A DNA stretch of 64,000 bases, taken from Phenylobacterium sp. Its GTDB lineage: Bacteria; Pseudomonadota; Alphaproteobacteria; Caulobacterales; Caulobacteraceae. Position numbers and translations under genes: made by a program. Shown here in pieces: positions 10,144-45,982 of the stretch. The DNA lies in assembly GCF_013911965.1 (NCBI RefSeq), contig NZ_JACESE010000009.1, positions 69,085 to 133,084 on the forward strand, given 5' to 3'. The notes under the pieces were generated by a model, which saw only the letters and a program-made list of their open reading frames with translations, ran no database searches and was not told the DNA's origin. Every line of letters starts with the position of its first letter. The first letter of the stretch is position 1.

Positions 10144-10854
<711 letters not shown>

Positions 10855-11088
10855 TCGGTCTGGGCTCCGTTGGCGGCCGGGCGAGGGAGTCGCCCCAGGG
10901 TGCAGTGAAACGCGGCGGTGGCGAACTTAAGGCGCCCGACGATGACGATCACGCCCGCACCCCCGGCGGTAGAACAGGTTTTTCGTCCATCGGGCGCCCC
11001 GGCCCCGTCGCACAGGACGTCCGGGCGCCGAATCGCACAGCCGACGGCAAGATGAATCAGGCGACGTCCGGCGTCACCTATGCCGCTC

Positions 11089-11556
11089 TTATGCCGGCGT
11101 TTCCGGCTCGGCGAAGTAGGGCGCGAGCGCCTGGGCCATGCCTGGCGGCGGCTTGCGGGGCCGGCCGTCCATCCCGATGCAGGCGGCCTGCACCGCGGCC
11201 TGGGCGATCAGGTCGCCGCCGCGCAGGATGCGCTGGCCGATGAAGAGCCGCGGCCCCTTCACGCGGTCATAGACCGTGCGGACCTGCAGGGCGTCGTCGA
11301 TGCGCGCCGGACGCCGGAAGTCGATCTCCATCCGCACGATGGTGAAGGCGGCCGGATCCTCGCGGTCCAGCAGCTCGGCGTGCCGGACGCCGGCCACCCG
11401 CAGGAAGTCCGAGCGCCCGCGCTCGAAGAAGCGGACATAGCTGCCGTGATAGACGACGCCGGTGAAGTCGGTGTCCTCGTAATAGACCCGCACCGGCAGC
11501 ACGTGCTCGCGGCCCTCGATGAAGCCCGCCGAGGGTTCGCCCGGATTGTCGGCCAT
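11089..11556 (-). CDS. ybgC: Tol-Pal associated acyl-CoA thioesterase YbgC
   Basis: RVYYEDTDFTGVVYHGSY hotdog motif; upstream of tolQ. Confidence 0.92.
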   Translation of the reverse strand: MADNPGEPSAGFIEGREHVLPVRVYYEDTDFTGVVYHGSYVRFFERGRSDFLRVAGVRHAELLDREDPAAFTIVRMEIDFRRPARIDDALQVRTVYDRVKGPRLFIGQRILRGGDLIAQAAVQAACIGMDGRPRKPPPGMAQALAPYFAEPETPA

Positions 11557-11628
11557 GCCGCGCCTCCTCTGCTGCGTCCGTCTGGTCTGACCGCAGGTGA
11601 GGGCGGCGGGTCAAGCCGCAGGCGGCCT

Positions 11629-12656
<1,028 letters not shown>

Positions 12657-12660
<4 letters not shown>

Positions 12661-13277
12661 CGGCCGAGCTCCTGCAGCGCCGCCTTGATCAGGGCGGCGG
12701 GCTGCACGTCCTCATCCAGGCGGGCGGCGGCGGCCTCGACCACCCGGCGGGCCTGGGGCTCGGTGACGCCCAGGCCCATCAGGGCGGCGACGGCCTCGCC
12801 TGCGGCCGAAGGCGCCGGCGTCGGCGTCGGCGTTTCGCCGGCCGGTACGAAAGCGCTGACGGGCAGGTCGGTCAGCGCCTTGTCCTTCAGCTCGGTGACG
12901 ATGCGGACGGCGAGCTTGGGCCCCACGCCCTGGGCGCGGGCCACGGCGGCCTTGTCCTGCCGGCCGGCGGCGGCGGCCAGTTCGGCCGGCGAAAGCACGT
13001 CGAGGACGGCGAGCGCGGCCTTGGGGCCCACGCCCTGGATCTCCTTCAGGATCAGGAAGGTCCGCCGCTCGTCCCGCGTGGGGAAGCCGTAGAGGCGCAT
13101 GCCCGCCTGCTCGCTCCACTGTGTCTCGATGTGCAGGACCGTTTCCTCGCCCACGGGCGGCAGGCGCGAGAGGGTGCGCGATCCGCAGCGGACCACATAG
13201 CCGACGCCCATGACGTCGATCAGGGCGTCCTCCTCGCCGATCTCGGCGACGGTCCCGCGCAGGCGTCCGATCATCAC
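12657..13277 (-). CDS. ruvA: Holliday junction branch migration protein RuvA
   Basis: MIGRLRG, DVMGVGY and two HhH motifs (QGVGPK). Confidence 0.96.
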
Positions 13278-13780
13278 GCCACCCGCCTCGCCGACAGGTC
13301 GCGCGCGCTGCGGGCGTGCGCATGGGCGATGGCGACGGCGAGCGCGTCGGCGGCGTCAGCCGTCGCGCCCCCGGCGCCGGGCAGCAGGCGGGCGATCATG
13401 AAGGCCACCTGGTCCTTGTCGGCCGCGCCGGTGCCGACCACGGCCTTCTTGACAACGGTGGCGGCGTACTCGGCCACGGGCAGGCCGGCGCGCGCCGGCG
13501 CCACCATGGCCATGGCCCGGGCGTGGCCGAGCTTCAGGGCGCTGGCGGCGTTGTTGTTCATGAAGGTCTCCTCCACCGCGGCCTCGGCCGGGGCGTGGGC
13601 GGCGACCAGGGCGGTGATCTCCTCGAAGAGGGTCAGCAGCCGGTCGGCGAAGGGCAGCTTGTCCGAAGGCGCGATCACACCGTGCGCCACATGGCTGATG
13701 CGCGCGCCCTGCACGGCGATCACCCCCCAGCCGGTGCGGCGGAGGCCCGGGTCCAGTCCGAGGATTCGCAGGGCGGCCAT
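13274..13780 (-). CDS. ruvC: Holliday junction resolvase RuvC
   Basis: [27 protein letters not shown] and DAADALAVA motifs; ATG at 13780 with GAGA RBS. Confidence 0.96.
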
Positions 13781-13797
13781 GGCGTCTCTATAGGTCT

Positions 13798-13812
13798 GTT
13801 CGGGGATTGTTC
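13798..13812 (-). promoter_or_regulatory. LexA (SOS) box upstream of ruvCAB
   Basis: GTTC-GGGGATT-GTTC matches the alphaproteobacterial LexA direct repeat GTTC-N7-GTTC exactly, 18 nt before the ruvC ATG. Confidence 0.85.
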
Positions 13813-13839
13813 CTACCGCCCTATTGGCCGCGGACAGGG

Positions 13840-13854
13840 TTAGCCCCGCGTTAA
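13840..13854 (-). promoter_or_regulatory. CtrA-like site upstream of ruvC
   Basis: On the minus strand it reads TTAA-CGCGGGG-CTAA(C), one mismatch from TTAA-N7-TTAA; TTAA is rare in this GC-rich DNA. Confidence 0.5.
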
Positions 13855-13862
13855 GACGGCCT

Positions 13863-14360
13863 TCAGCCCTTCGGCAGGCCCGGGACCTTGGCCAGGTTCG
13901 GCCGGGGGATCGGGTTCTGGACATCGCCGCGCGACTTGGCGCGGTCGAGCCCGAGTTCGGCCCAGGCGGCGCAGAAGCTGGCGGGCTTTCGCGCGTCGGC
14001 GCGGTCGGTGCGGGCGAGGCTCAGGCCCCGGCCGGCCAGCGCCTTGGCGACCGCCTCCCAGGTCTCCGCCGCCGGCAGCGGCGCGCCTTCCGCATCCTTC
14101 CATCCGGCGGCGCGGCGGGCGCCGAGCTGGCGCACGCCCTCGATCAGCCGCGGCTCGGAGAGGTGCAGGGCGACGGCCTCGCCGGGCGGCAGGCCCTTCA
14201 CCGCCGACAGAAGCGACCGCGCCGCCAGATCCTCGGCGTCCACGTCGCGGAACCCGCCGGCCGCGCCGCTCAGCCCCTCGGCGCCGTGACGAAGCCAGGC
14301 GAATCCGCCGGCCCGGTAGACCGGCTGGTGCTCGGTCTCGATCCAGATCTTCACGCTCAT
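13863..14360 (-). CDS. RNase HI-like protein with degenerate active site
   Basis: Collinear by eye with E. coli RNase HI (GGFAWL ~ GGYGAI; GWKDAEGAPLPAAETWEAV ~ GWKTADKKPVKNVDLWQRL); catalytic carboxylates appear substituted. Confidence 0.7.
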   Translation of the reverse strand: MSVKIWIETEHQPVYRAGGFAWLRHGAEGLSGAAGGFRDVDAEDLAARSLLSAVKGLPPGEAVALHLSEPRLIEGVRQLGARRAAGWKDAEGAPLPAAETWEAVAKALAGRGLSLARTDRADARKPASFCAAWAELGLDRAKSRGDVQNPIPRPNLAKVPGLPKG

Positions 14361-14402
14361 GAGGGGGCGGTCCTTATCACTGCGGGCCGGCGCCTGTCGC
14401 CC

Positions 14403-15101
14403 TCAGTCCTTGCGGGGCGAGAGGTTGTATTCGATGACGCGCCCGTCCTCCCGCAGGCGCTGGGCCAGTCGCTCCACGGCGAGCCGGCCGCTGCCGTGCA
14501 GGGTGGCGCGGTACTCCACCCGGCCCGGCCCGCCGTCGCCGGCCCACAGGCGCTGGGAGACCGCGCCGGTGTGCAGGCCGAACTCGGCCATCAGTTCTCG
14601 GAAGGCGCTCTCGTCGACCGCCTCGGCCCGCCGGTAGCAGACGGCGACGTCCATGATGTTGAGCTGCGGCATGTGGCGGTCGGCCCAGCGCAGCACGCCC
14701 AGCACCACCACCGTCACCGCCGTCCCGCCGATCGCCAGGCCGTAGAAGCCGACGCCGTAGAGGGTGCCCAGCGCCGAGGTGATCCAGAGCGAGGCGGCCG
14801 TCGTCAGGCCATGGACGCTGAGCCCCTGGCGGAAGATCACGCCGCCGCAGAGGAAGCCGATGCCGGTCAGGATGCCGTGGGCCATACGGACGGGATCGAT
14901 GCGGATGATCTCGTCGGTGGCGTTCTCCATCCACTCCATCTGGTGGACGGCGGCCAGCATCAGCAGGGCCGAACTGAGACTGACCAGGATGTGGGTGCGA
15001 AAACCCGCCGGCCGGCCGCGATACTCCCGCTCGAAACCGATCAACCCGCCCGCCAGGACGGCGCCGATCACCGGCAGGATGAACTTGTCGAGCGCCTCCA
15101 T
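14403..15101 (-). CDS. MgtC/SapB family membrane protein
   Basis: IGFEREYRGRPAGFRTH, GILTGIGFLCGG and GLTTAASLW motifs; soluble C-terminal domain. Confidence 0.9.
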   Translation of the reverse strand: MEALDKFILPVIGAVLAGGLIGFEREYRGRPAGFRTHILVSLSSALLMLAAVHQMEWMENATDEIIRIDPVRMAHGILTGIGFLCGGVIFRQGLSVHGLTTAASLWITSALGTLYGVGFYGLAIGGTAVTVVVLGVLRWADRHMPQLNIMDVAVCYRRAEAVDESAFRELMAEFGLHTGAVSQRLWAGDGGPGRVEYRATLHGSGRLAVERLAQRLREDGRVIEYNLSPRKD

Positions 15102-15155
15102 TCCAGGAGAACGCAGAAGGCGCGGCCGAGCTTCCCCGGCCCGCGCCGAAAGCCG

Positions 15156-15902
15156 TCAGCCGGCGTACTTTTCCACGTCCTCGTCGGAGACGTCGTAGTT
15201 GCCGTAGACGTTCTGGACGTCGTCGTCCTCTTCCAGGGCGTCGATCAGCTTCATGAGCGTGCCGACCGGCTCGCCCTCGACGGGCGTGAGCGTCTTGGGC
15301 CGCCAGGCGATGGCGGTGGACTTGGGCTCGCCGAGCGCGGCCTCCAGCGCCTGGGCCACGTCGGACAGGTCCTCGAAGGCGGTGAAGATGGTGTGGGTCT
15401 CCTCGTCGGACTCCACGTCCTGGGCGCCGGCCTCGATGGCGGCCTCCATGACCTTGTCTTCCGAACCCACGGCGGCGGCGTAGACGATCTGGCCCACGCG
15501 ATCGAACATGAAGGAGACCGAGCCGGTCTCGCCCAGATTGCCGCCGTTCTTGGCGAAGATGGCCCGCACATTGGCCGCCGAGCGGTTGCGGTTGTCGGTC
15601 AGGGCCTCGACGATCACGCCCACGCCGCCGGGGCCGAAGCCTTCGTAGCGGACCTCGTCATAGGTCTCGGCGTCGGCGCCCGACGCCTTCTTGATCGCCC
15701 GGTCGATGTTGTCCTTGGGCATGGACTCGGCCTTGGCGTTGGCCACGGCCAGGCGCAGGCGGGCGTTCATCGTCGGGTCGGGCAGGCCCGACTTGGCCGC
15801 CACGGTGATCTCGCGCGAAAGCTTGGAGAACAGCTTCGACCGCATCGAGTCCTGGCGACCCTTGCGGTGCATGATGTTCTTGAATTTCGAATGTCCGGCC
15901 AT
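15156..15902 (-). CDS. yebC: YebC/PmpR family protein
   Basis: [26 protein letters not shown] and DDDVQNVY motifs. Confidence 0.97.
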
Positions 15903-15958
15903 GGGTCCTGGTTGGGTCTTGGGCTGGCTTTGAAGCTGGCGAAGAAACGGAAGCGCCG

Positions 15959-15987
15959 CTTCTAACGCCGCACAGGGCGCAAGGCAA
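15959..15987 (-). promoter_or_regulatory. Possible housekeeping-sigma promoter of yebC
   Basis: Minus strand reads TTGCCT-N17-TAGAAG, about 57 nt upstream of the ATG. Confidence 0.3.
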
Positions 15988-16014
15988 AGGCCCTGCGCCC
16001 CCGGCCGGCGCCGT

Positions 16015-16806
16015 CTAGCGCGGGCCCTGGCGCTTGCCCACCGGGTGCGACGACGACAGGCCGCCGTCCACGGCGATGGCCTGGCCGTTGACGTAGGAGG
16101 AGTCGTCGCTGGCCAGGAAGAGGGCGGTATAGGCGATCTCCTCCGGGACGCCGGCGCGCTTGAGCGGATTGAGCTGGCCGATCTTGTCCTCGCTGCCGCG
16201 CGAGCGGGCGAAGTCGAAGACCCCCTTGGTCATGCCGGTCTCGATCAGGCCCGGACAGATGGCGTTGACCCGGACGCCGGTGCCGTAGAGCTCGTTGGCC
16301 GCCGTGGTCGCCAGGTTGATGACGCCGGCCTTGGAGGCCGAATAGGAGGCCGGCCCGGCGCCCGACCGGATGCCGGCCACCGAGGCCGTGCAGATGATCG
16401 AGCCCTTGCCGGCCGGGATCATCACCTTGGTGGCGTGCTTGATGGCCAGGAACGGCCCGATCAGGTTGATGCGCAGCACCTCGGTCCAGATCTCAGGCGT
16501 CAGTTCGAAGAAGGGGGTCGGCCCGCCGGTGATCCCGGCGTTGGCGTAGACCGCGTCCAGCCCGCCGAATTCGTCCACCGCGCGCTGGATGTAGGACTGG
16601 ACGAAGGCCTCGTCGCCGGCGTCCCCGGTCATGGCCACGGCCTGGCCGCCATGGGCCTTGATGGAGGCGACGGTCTCCTCGACGGCGTCGGCGCGGTCGA
16701 CGCAGACGACGCGGGCGCCTTCCTTGGCGAACAGGGCGGCGCTGGCGCGGCCGATGCCGCTGGCTGCGCCGGTGACCACGGCCGAGCGGCCTTCGAGACG
16801 TCCCAT
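16015..16806 (-). CDS. Short-chain dehydrogenase/reductase
   Basis: [12 protein letters not shown] and YSASK motifs. Confidence 0.93.
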
Positions 16807-35852: not shown

Positions 35853-36623
35853 TCAGGGGCGCCGGAACACGTGGACGTCGCCCACCTGGCCCAGGGCGAT
35901 GAGATCGCCGTCCGGCTCCAGGCCCGCGGAACGGGCGAAGGGCGCCGGATCGGCGGCGTAGTAGGTCAGGCGCTCGCGCGAGGACGCCTGCACCCGTCCC
36001 TGGGCGTCGCGGACCTGATAGTCGAGCACCTGGTCGAAACGGCCGATCTCCGGCCGCGCGCGCCGGTCGTGGACGAAGACCAGCAGTTCCTGACCCTGGT
36101 CGTTGAAGGGCGCGCGCAGCACGGGCCGATCGGGCGGCGGCGCCGGGGCCGCGGCCAGCCTGTCGGCCCGGGGGAGGTGGAAGGCGGCCCGGCCGCCGGG
36201 CGCCAGCCGCGCCGCCACGCCCCCGAAGACGTTCTTCCAGGCGGCGCCCGCCGGCAGGTGGGCGAGGCCGAAATAGGGGCAGACGATCGCATCGAACGGC
36301 CCTGGAACCGACAGGGCGGCCATGTCGCCCCGCACGAGGGTCACCCGCGCGGCGATCTCCGGCGGCGCCGCCTGGCGCCGCGCCTCGGCCTGGGCGAGCA
36401 TGAGGGGCGAGAGGTCGAGGCCGACCACCGTGAAGCCGCGCTCGGCCAGGGCCAGGCAGACGCGGCCCGTGCCGGCGCCGAGCTCCAGAACGCGGCCGCC
36501 CTCGGGCGCGAGGCGCGCATAGATGTCGACGTCCCCGGAGAGGTCCGGGTCGAGCGCCGTGGTCAGGTCGTAGAAGGGCGCCGACAGACCGCCGGGCGAA
36601 TAATAGGGTTTGACCTCGGCCAT
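35853..36623 (-). CDS. Class I SAM-dependent methyltransferase
   Basis: VLELGAGTGRV, GLDLS and GDMA motifs; GGAG RBS before the ATG at 36623. Confidence 0.88.
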   Translation of the reverse strand: MAEVKPYYSPGGLSAPFYDLTTALDPDLSGDVDIYARLAPEGGRVLELGAGTGRVCLALAERGFTVVGLDLSPLMLAQAEARRQAAPPEIAARVTLVRGDMAALSVPGPFDAIVCPYFGLAHLPAGAAWKNVFGGVAARLAPGGRAAFHLPRADRLAAAPAPPPDRPVLRAPFNDQGQELLVFVHDRRARPEIGRFDQVLDYQVRDAQGRVQASSRERLTYYAADPAPFARSAGLEPDGDLIALGQVGDVHVFRRP

Positions 36624-45002: not shown

Positions 45003-45017
45003 GTTCTCTATACGTTC
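45003..45017 (+). promoter_or_regulatory. LexA (SOS) box upstream of orphan ORF
   Basis: GTTC-TCTATAC-GTTC matches GTTC-N7-GTTC exactly; TAGGCT -10-like element at 45028-45033. Confidence 0.7.
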
Positions 45018-45049: not shown

Positions 45050-45982
45050 ATGGGCGTGAGGCTGGACTGGCTGGCGGTGCGGGCGGGGAGGCGGAAGGCG
45101 CTTCTCGATCGTCTGGATCTCGAGTTGGCCGGCGAGGTGAGCCAGGAGGTCGGCGAGGGACTGGTGCTGGCCACGCTGCCCTCCGGGTGGCTCGTCCTGG
45201 TGGGCCCCCACGATGACCCCGCCATTCTCCCCAACATCGGGCCTGCGTCCGAAGCCTGCGGCGAGGGCTTGGGCGGCCAGGTCGTCGAATCGGTCGGTTA
45301 CAGCCGTCTGCAGCGCTACGAGGCCGGCCGAATGCTGTGGTCGCTGGCCTCGGGGGCGTCGACGGGCATTTCTGAACGTTCCGGTGCGCCGCCGCCGCTG
45401 CCCGAGGATTGCGCCACGCCGTTCGAGGCTGTGCTCGCCCTGTCGGAGAGTCTATGCGGCTATCGTCCTGGCGAGACGTCGGGGTTGGCTTGGCGACGCC
45501 TTGTCCGCCGCGGCGCTGCGCGGCCTGCCAATGGTGGCGGCGCGTTGCTCCAGAGGATGCGGATCGAGCTGATCCCCTTACTTGAGGACCTCGGCTGGAG
45601 CGCGCCGCCCGTGCCGAAGATGGCGGACGCTGGCGTTATCACCCGCGAGCTTGGCGACCATCGACAGACGATCTGGTTCGAGTACGCCAGCGGACGCGAG
45701 ACCTACATCCGCGTCCACTTTGAGAGCGCCGACGCGCAGGACGGCGACAGTCGCGGCGAACTGGGTTTTGTGGGCGCGCCGCGGAAGGAGCCTCTGCCGG
45801 TCTGGAAGCGCTTCACCTGGAAGCGGCTGGCCGAGCTCTCAAACTACCCGCCTGGGCCCGCCGACCCCATCACCGCGGCGCTCGACCGCGCCCGGGAGGA
45901 AATCCAGGTCGCCGACGCCTACCTGAGGACCGGCGCGCCCGACCGCCGCATCTACGTCACTCAACGCTGGCCGCAAGCCTGA
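45050..45982 (+). CDS. Hypothetical two-domain protein (orphan-like, atypical codon usage)
   Basis: The 310-codon ORF fills the gap between known genes; A/T-ending codons (TTA, CTT, TCT, GGT) are more frequent than in neighbouring genes. Confidence 0.75.
   Translation: MGVRLDWLAVRAGRRKALLDRLDLELAGEVSQEVGEGLVLATLPSGWLVLVGPHDDPAILPNIGPASEACGEGLGGQVVESVGYSRLQRYEAGRMLWSLASGASTGISERSGAPPPLPEDCATPFEAVLALSESLCGYRPGETSGLAWRRLVRRGAARPANGGGALLQRMRIELIPLLEDLGWSAPPVPKMADAGVITRELGDHRQTIWFEYASGRETYIRVHFESADAQDGDSRGELGFVGAPRKEPLPVWKRFTWKRLAELSNYPPGPADPITAALDRAREEIQVADAYLRTGAPDRRIYVTQRWPQA

Follow-up and report, generated by a model that had tools for sequence, protein, structure and literature searches.

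Several RNase H folds are known that do not act as nucleases, among them the connection domain of HIV-1 reverse transcriptase (RT), the RNase H-like domain of Prp8 and Tigger-derived domains; in bacteria, an RNase HI homologue of Bacillus subtilis is said to have kept its catalytic carboxylates. This homologue (NP_390082, YpdQ type) was found to possess neither RNase H nor any other nuclease activity and has no basic protrusion (PMC1950709). Incomplete or rearranged active sites have been described in the RNase H-like superfamily, with loss of metal residues in CENP-B (PMC3985635). Fungal Dis3/RNase II-like pseudonucleases of the Ssd1 type are reported (PMC8097288) to have lost the active site, to bind RNA and to be retained under selection. 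Here a 165-aa RNase HI-like protein is described which is encoded directly upstream of ruvC in a stretch of 64,000 nt from Phenylobacterium sp. (contig NZ_JACESE010000009.1); this whole stretch is referred to below as the window. The protein has an RNase HI fold in which all four catalytic carboxylates have been replaced, together with a family-specific C-terminal motif. On balance, and with modest confidence, we favour the view that it is a stand-alone RNase HI-derived pseudoenzyme that would be expressed from its own promoter, act by non-catalytic binding and be separate from the LexA-controlled ruvCAB genes.

The gene is a genuine open reading frame (ORF) with an ATG start, as judged from a program-made ORF list and from its homologues, 40 of which were returned by a homologue search (33–99 % identity). 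The window protein had no match in Pfam or NCBIfam, even at E≤1, and PF00075 was touched by only four of 30 relatives (best E=0.013, below the Pfam gathering score). In a single-sequence phmmer search of the PDB, RNase HI topped the list with a marginal E value of ~0.04. When the family profile was used for hmmsearch against the PDB, E. coli RNase HI was found with E=3.4e-7, and hhalign aligned the wider family with a canonical RNase HI alignment over 143 columns (probability 99.8, E=4.2e-30). An AlphaFold2 model, computed with the family alignment as input, had a predicted local distance difference test (pLDDT) score of 95 and a predicted template-modelling (TM) score (pTM) of 0.89, and contained β1–β5 and αA–αE in the canonical order. 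The top 50 Foldseek matches of this model in the PDB were all RNase HI (E ~2e-9, TM 0.72–0.80, root-mean-square deviation ~2.2 Å, 15–17 % identity), and a search of a viral structure library returned RNase H alone. With the family profiles, homology to RNase HI is decisive, though the single sequence was marginal. Going by these profiles and the model, the 165-aa protein is an RNase HI-fold protein, derived from RNase HI by descent. An earlier note on this DNA had aligned the ORF by eye with E. coli RNase HI along its length; the profile alignment and the Foldseek match bear this out, and the fold of the predicted structure, which had been named beforehand as a point on which the idea could be refuted, is an RNase H fold with RNase HI at the top of the matches.

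In the hhalign register, the metal-binding catalytic residues D10, E48, D70 and D134 of the E. coli enzyme correspond to E8, A46, S68 and A131 of the window protein, and H124, which sits on a flexible loop of the enzyme and serves in product release or as general base, corresponds to A121. The earlier note had named the same four substitutions, which were thus recovered by profile–profile alignment. A131 is the first alanine of FCAAWA, and this register is bridged by other sequences, since the canonical-like protein P0142 has FVDALA and several members of the wider family have FVDAWA at this point. Two other registers were dropped, hhalign and the bridging sequences being preferred: direct alignment with E. 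coli by MAFFT, which set D134 opposite A134, and a larger alignment in which the last helix was misplaced entirely. The conclusion that the tetrad has been lost is independent of the register of D134, because A131, A132 and A134 are all alanine, each of them near-invariant across the family.

Conservation was followed in a family set of 66 members extracted from genomes (66 loci, L001–L066), among which none of the tetrad positions was conserved as a carboxylate. The D10 column contained E in 35 members, Q in 13, L, A and R in four each, and S and C in three each. The E48 column contained A (42 members), C (10), G (six) and others, with E in only two, and the D70 column contained S (23), D (17), A (16), G (four), T (three) and others. 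At all three candidate positions for D134 the family residue was alanine, and the H124 column of the MAFFT alignment was occupied by A, S, T, G, D or Q, and never by H. A library-wide profile search gave 126 representatives at E≤1e-10, of which ~65 full-length sequences were compared. Loss of the catalytic residues in these was mosaic and independent of position, different members having retained different single residues; D10, E48 and D70 were retained together in one representative only (P0068). To judge from the sequences, this mosaic is the pattern that an ancestor freed from catalytic selection would leave. Of the 31 columns that are invariant in the canonical alignment, only five (G20, G21, L59, W104 and A137) are retained by the window protein. 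The protein is very probably without RNase H activity and, because the tetrad is missing, an assay for cleavage of the RNA strand in RNA:DNA hybrids is predicted to be negative. The earlier note's description of a pseudo-nuclease, that is, an RNase HI fold without the catalytic tetrad, holds.

Two sequences from the library combine features of both groups. P0068 (170 aa, metagenomic) has the family C-terminal motif as IPKPNL and yet retains D10, E48 and D70, whilst P0142 (179 aa) has the full DEDD tetrad and H124, shares the 'FVDALA' helix with the family and has no such motif. By their sequences they are putative intermediates between enzyme and pseudoenzyme, and could help to establish when activity was lost.

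A nuclease or other hydrolase with a rearranged site, in which the last-helix residues E135 and D139 would operate with E8, E10 or H11 of β1, was also considered. Rearranged and incomplete sites have precedents in the RNase H-like superfamily (PMC3985635), and on the helix side E135 is acidic in 65 and D139 conserved in 63 of the 66 members, and the two lie one and two helical turns past the D134 equivalent on the same helix face. On the β1 side, E8 and H11 show conservation within the window subclade. Over the 66 members, though, E8 is glutamate in only 35, as given above, E10 is variable and the H11 position is also occupied by F, Y or W. Moreover, E8, E135 and D139 are unconserved in the wider family, no set of three carboxylates is conserved together, and residues vary freely across the canonical site, which is what would be expected if catalysis were not selected for. 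We consider a rearranged site very improbable.

Nearly all of the residues that contact the substrate have also been replaced. The E. coli segment R41-T42-T43-N44-N45-R46, which contributes to the phosphate pocket and to the 2'-OH contacts, was aligned by hhalign with D39-V40-D41-A42-E43-D44 of the window protein, and further changes were S71 to E69, Q72 to P70, N16 to V14 and N100 to A97. The phosphate-pocket contacts T43, N45 and N100 are thereby D41, E43 and A97, and the 2'-OH contacts N16, N44 and Q72 are V14, A42 and P70. Several of the contacts have been replaced by acids, and the phosphate-pocket region of the window protein is acidic. Across the 66 members the columns of N16, T43, N44, N45, Q72 and N100 are unconserved, T43 being partly T or S.

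The basic protrusion (K86–K99 in E. coli) is a feature of the E. coli-type RNase HI subfamily. In the window subclade it is of full length, with G86-W87 and R82-R83 present and K87, R88, K95, K96 and K99 lost, and its net charge in the window protein is ~+1 as against +6 in E. coli. The match in this region reported in the earlier note stands as regards the length and the GW (G86-W87) of the window protein, but the five basic residues just named are gone and the whole segment is deleted in 49 of the 66 members. Because of this deletion, and because contact residues have been replaced, partly by acids, the protein is unlikely to bind RNA:DNA hybrids in the canonical mode, and the conservation seen in the family does not lie in such recognition; the proposal that such binding had been retained is not upheld for that mode. 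The family is basic (median isoelectric point, pI, 9.5 in the 66 members).

About 25 positions are near-invariant in the family. They include W6, G18-G19-W20, G32, A34-G35-G36, R38 and W101 in the core, F129, A132, W133 and A134 in the last helix, and F147, I151, P152, N155, L156 and K158 in a C-terminal module of ~14 residues that has no counterpart in canonical RNase HI. The extra C-terminal tail IPRPNLAKVPGL noticed earlier is indeed present, and its core IP[KR]xNL is the best-conserved feature of the family: I151, P152, N155 and L156 are identical in 66/66 members and throughout the wider family, and K158 is found in 63/66. In the AlphaFold2 model the tail forms a short strand plus a helix with high pLDDT. 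Readings of the motif as a β-clamp-binding sequence, an SSB tail or a degron were discarded, there being no known consensus motif of these kinds that it fits and the tail being folded in the model. Our tentative proposal, to which we give slightly less than even weight, is that the C-terminal module provides the binding surface by which the protein acts.

Pairwise ratios of non-synonymous to synonymous substitution (dN/dS) in the window subclade had a median of 0.26 (range 0.05–0.57), and the reading frame was intact and of similar length at 66/66 loci; for these two reasons the gene is regarded as maintained. Identity within this subclade was 56–85 % for the gene product, compared with 84–98 % for RuvC and 88–97 % for YebC. 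These comparisons indicate that the family is fast-evolving and under purifying but relaxed selection. A decaying, functionless remnant of a duplicated rnhA, surviving by chance in a variable interval, would agree with this faster evolution, with dN/dS as high as 0.57 in some pairs and with free variation at the former active-site positions. Decay is nevertheless opposed by the intact frames and by the median dN/dS, as well as by the ~25 near-invariant positions, which include a motif that the ancestor did not have, by the conservation of a −10-like element (see below) and by the persistence of the family over the Caulobacteraceae down to ~28 % identity. The chance that the gene is a remnant of this kind is judged to be small indeed.

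The −10-like element, G[CAG]TAN[ACG] ending 8–12 nt before the ATG, was present at 51 of the 66 loci, in all contexts, compared with 27 of 524 other genes, and its strict GCTA form was present at 41 of the 66 loci and in six of the 524 other genes. The element, which reads GATAAG in the window, follows the gene through three unrelated neighbourhoods and agrees with the Caulobacter RpoD −10 consensus GCtANAWC (PMC8144410). No Shine–Dalgarno sequence fits the C/G-rich spacer between the −10-like element and the ATG; leaderless mRNAs account for 9.6 % of the coding sequences (CDSs) of C. crescentus (PMC4117421). These features suggest that the gene has a promoter of its own and a leaderless or near-leaderless mRNA. 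A scan for consensus σ70 promoters between 11 and 16.2 kb of the window found nothing, as expected for an alphaproteobacterium of 70 % GC, and no intrinsic terminator was found on the minus strand between mgtC, the RNase HI-like gene and ruvC.

An exact GTTC-N7-GTTC, GTTCGGGGATTGTTC, separates the gene from ruvC and is 17 nt short of the ruvC ATG. In related loci a GAAC-N7-GAAC box occurs 30–40 nt before the ruvC ATG in 30/30 cases, regardless of the preceding gene. This is the published LexA box of Caulobacter, in which ruvC belongs to the late SOS genes and is transcribed from a promoter of its own (PMC12700426), and by analogy its presence before ruvC implies that ruvCAB would be under SOS control in Phenylobacterium. 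The RNase HI-like gene sits upstream of this operator; in the 150 nt upstream of the gene itself no LexA box (≤1 mismatch) was found in the window subclade, and there were three chance-like matches in 65 loci. Because the LexA box precedes ruvC in 30/30 loci and a separate −10-like element precedes the RNase HI-like gene, we infer that ruvC is a separate transcription unit. The function of the RNase HI-like gene is likely to be independent of ruvC.

The window contains three exact GTTC-N7-GTTC sequences, where 1.3 would be expected. The second (45003–45017) is 33 nt upstream of an ORF on the plus strand (45050–45982, 310 aa, no Pfam match), which may be an uncharacterized SOS-regulated gene. 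The third (36294–36308) is inside ORFs and may be due to chance.

Neighbouring genes were surveyed by tblastn of the window neighbours against the 66 loci and by clustering of neighbouring genes. The clustering used gene calls based on GC content at third codon positions (GC3), which sometimes picked antisense ORFs; the positions of ruv, yebC and mgtC, which came from tblastn, are unaffected. A co-oriented ruvC was found downstream within 5 kb at 30 loci, whilst the other 36 had no ruvC within 5 kb. It was directly adjacent (<130 nt) at 14 loci and in the window, and 0.4–3.4 kb away at 16 loci; direct adjacency was limited to the window's subclade and one other locus. Overall, 38/66 loci had a yebC…ruvC neighbourhood, and at 28/66 neither a ruv gene nor yebC was present within 5 kb.

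Three contexts recurred, alongside assorted others. Context A, yebC-(mgtC)-gene-ruvCAB, was that of the window and 16 loci, of which 13 had ruvC adjacent, two had a gap of 426 nt and one had a gap of 2.2 kb. Context B comprised yebC-mgtC-…-thioesterase (reversed)-gene-PRK-like kinase-M50 peptidase-ruvCAB, with ruvC 1.8–3.4 kb away; the kinase and the peptidase lay between the gene and ruvC at 13 loci. Context C (13 loci) had no ruv genes and consisted of a gene for an NT5C-like haloacid dehalogenase (HAD) family protein, a cystathionine lyase and a CBS gene (both reversed), the RNase HI-like gene, an M13 peptidase gene (reversed) and dinB. In the wider family the gene follows a dehydrogenase-like gene at L067 and is convergent with mfd at L068. 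No neighbour gene shared across the family was found in the 66 loci plus L067 and L068.

In context C (L017, L056, L063 and ten others, e.g. L046:1608-2279) the NT5C-like HAD gene, which is deoxyribonucleotidase-like, was upstream in 13/13 loci and abutted the RNase HI-like gene directly in three, and dinB was two genes downstream. Apart from ruv, no recurrent neighbour other than the HAD gene has a connection to nucleotides or DNA. The yebC–ruvC interval of related genomes holds changing, unrelated genes, those for the thioesterase, PRK-like kinase and M50 peptidase being identified by Pfam, and aminotransferase-like and PEP-CTERM-like genes being named by eye. From its gene content the interval appears to be a variable region.

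The position of the gene had led the earlier note to suggest an R-loop or recombination factor. In its full form this alternative is a non-cleaving binder of RNA:DNA hybrids (R-loops), or an adaptor, that would be a partner of the RuvABC resolvasome and stands beside ruvC on account of a joint role in recombination or replication-fork repair. The RNase HI fold, the protrusion kept in the window subclade and the basic pI of the family are consistent with such a role, as are ruvC adjacency in the window and 14 loci, the yebC…ruvC interval at 38 of the 66, and repair genes within a few kb elsewhere (dinB in context C, mfd and recG at L068). The neighbourhood evidence is, however, inconstant: there is no family-wide neighbour, and the 28 loci that have neither ruv nor yebC nearby show that ruv linkage, which the note had proposed to check for conservation, does not characterize the family as a whole. 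Where ruvC is present, the conserved LexA operator separates it from the gene, which has no LexA box of its own. Likewise, mfd and dinB are convergent or have unrelated genes between, the protrusion has been deleted in most members, and the phosphate-pocket and 2'-OH contacts have been lost, partly to acids. A role of this kind with RuvABC is therefore unlikely. A Caulobacteraceae-specific, non-catalytic adaptor built on the RNase HI fold, in which the newly evolved IP[KR]xNL module would recruit or regulate a partner where there are stalled forks, Holliday junctions or RNA:DNA hybrids, and which would thus be a natural 'dead RNase H' sensor acting alongside repair proteins such as RuvABC, DinB or Mfd, is decidedly unlikely.

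The stand-alone pseudoenzyme that we favour would work as follows. The protein would neither cleave RNA:DNA hybrids nor hold them in the canonical groove, and its selected function would be the non-catalytic binding of a protein partner or a non-canonical ligand. The RNase H core would serve as a scaffold for a binding surface made up of the last helix (W133, F129) and the C-terminal module F147…I151-P152-x-x-N155-L156-x-K158. The gene would be expressed from an RpoD-type promoter of its own, and its mRNA would be leaderless or nearly so. The place beside ruvC would reflect the variable yebC–ruvC interval and no shared pathway; proximity to ruvC is taken as a local accident because the gene is separate from the LexA-controlled ruvCAB. 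Some points weigh against this explanation. The putative promoter and leaderless mRNA rest on a match to a consensus, and read-through co-transcription into ruvC is possible because no terminator was found between the two genes. The C-terminal module may be a structural cap rather than a binding surface. The full-length protrusion of the window subclade, with its G-W and two arginines, and the basic pI of the family may allow some binding of nucleic acid. Finally, the 38 of 66 loci in a yebC…ruvC neighbourhood are more than a single accident would give, which is explained by vertical inheritance.

The coordinates of the gene and of the features around it are given in Table 1. In order of transcription the minus-strand genes are yebC, mgtC, the RNase HI-like gene, ruvC, ruvA, ruvB and a thioesterase-like ORF, so that the gene is, as the earlier note stated, co-oriented with and inside the yebC…ruvCAB block. 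It starts 42 nt past the mgtC stop codon and ends 82 nt ahead of the ruvC ATG. Base composition is unremarkable, with a GC fraction of 0.70–0.77 across the region.

Table 1. Positions in the window of the RNase HI-like gene, its diagnostic codons and motifs, and neighbouring features
Feature	Position	Strand	Evidence
CDS of the 165-aa RNase HI-like putative pseudoenzyme, stop codon included	13863..14360	-	ORF; 40 close homologues, 66 genomic loci; hhalign; AlphaFold2/Foldseek; dN/dS
Codon of E8, equivalent of catalytic D10	14337..14339	-	hhalign
Codon of A46, equivalent of catalytic E48	14223..14225	-	hhalign
Codon of S68, equivalent of catalytic D70	14157..14159	-	hhalign
Codon of A131, equivalent of catalytic D134, FCAAWAEL helix	13968..13970	-	hhalign and bridging sequences
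αC/basic protrusion remnant R82-P96, ARRAAGWKDAEGAPLP	14073..14117	-	hhalign alignment to E. coli W85-K99
Family-specific C-terminal motif I151-G161 (IPRPNLAKVPG)	13878..13910	-	Family conservation; model
Putative −10-like hexamer GATAAG, 12 nt upstream of ATG	14373..14378	-	Family-wide pattern; Caulobacter RpoD consensus
LexA-box-like GTTC-N7-GTTC between the putative pseudoenzyme gene and ruvC; bounds the unit, outside it	13798..13812	.	Exact match
ruvC, downstream neighbour	13274..13780	-	Pfam PF02075, E=2e-42
mgtC-family membrane-protein gene, upstream neighbour	14403..15101	-	Pfam PF02308, E=4e-36
yebC	15156-15902	-	Pfam
ruvA	12657-13277	-	Named from sequence; same gene order recurs in related loci
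ruvB	11629-12660	-	Named from sequence; same gene order recurs in related loci
Thioesterase-like ORF	11089-11556	-	Named from sequence and position

The word 'paralogue' in the earlier note presupposes a canonical rnhA in the same genome. None was found within the 64-kb window, and a search for Caulobacterales RnhA with the canonical-like P0142 returned only diverse RNase HI of other phyla. All 38 alphaproteobacteria in a published survey (38/38) have RNase HI plus HII (PMC1950709), and by analogy a canonical rnhA is expected in the same genome as the RNase HI-like gene.

The family spans Phenylobacterium, Caulobacter and other Caulobacteraceae. Its named members come from Phenylobacterium, Caulobacter sp. 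and unclassified Caulobacteraceae, the single exception being a metagenome-assembled genome labelled Gemmatimonadota. It has no Pfam or NCBIfam model, its members carry the public names 'hypothetical protein', 'ribonuclease H' or 'ribonuclease HI', and full-text literature searches found no published description of it. An origin in a defence system or a phage was rejected: there was no PADLOC match, PHROG gave only generic RNase H, matched solely by less-diverged relatives, and the composition is not island-like.

In public sequencing data, which comprised metagenomes and small 'RNA?' runs from unrelated organisms, coverage of the locus was never more than low and flat along the contig. The metagenomes with sequence near-identical to positions 10800–16200 of the window (74–99 % of sampled words) had been sampled from groundwater, hot springs, sea water, a lagoon and an oil facility. 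This pattern is the signature of a ubiquitous Phenylobacterium or of one that contaminates reagents or water.

The family is of interest as a clean bacterial duplicate of RNase HI in which catalysis and canonical substrate binding would have been lost, selection kept and a new conserved motif gained, and it offers a tractable case of pseudoenzyme neofunctionalization in a fold that is central to R-loop biology. The enzyme names 'ribonuclease H' and 'ribonuclease HI' under which members are filed in public annotation are almost certainly wrong as to function. The locus also gives reason for caution in inferring function from adjacency, in that the ruvC neighbourhood dissolves over 66 genomes and is split by a conserved LexA operator. 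The family is small and restricted to one lineage, no published description of it was found, and its most eye-catching feature, adjacency to ruvC, fails to hold.

Compared with E. coli RnhA and bacterial RNase HI in general (PF00075), the protein is alike in fold, ancestry, length class and single-domain structure, and in the window subclade W104 and the αC/protrusion segment, including its G-W, are still present. It differs in that the four carboxylates and H124 have been replaced, only five of the 31 invariant positions and none of the listed substrate contacts are left, the IP[KR]xNL module has been added, and its distribution is restricted to the Caulobacteraceae whereas RnhA is near-universal. 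By descent and predicted fold it belongs to the RNase HI lineage, but it lacks the catalytic and substrate-binding features that define the enzyme, and annotation as an RNase HI enzyme is not warranted. Among described cases the nearest, likened to it by description, is the B. subtilis homologue, which is bacterial, stand-alone, inactive and of unknown function and occurs beside active RNases H (PMC1950709); the present family differs from it in having lost the carboxylates themselves and in having a C-terminal motif of its own. The HIV-1 RT connection domain, Prp8 and the CENP-B/Tigger domains resemble it in that an RNase H-like fold without its metal residues has been kept for scaffolding or binding, but they are parts of large eukaryotic or viral proteins on other branches of the superfamily, whereas the present protein is free-standing, bacterial and RnhA-derived. 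The Ssd1-type pseudonucleases are likewise nuclease paralogues with a lost active site that have been kept by selection; they belong to another fold and another kingdom and have kept nucleic-acid binding, whereas in the present family the canonical binding determinants have been degraded.

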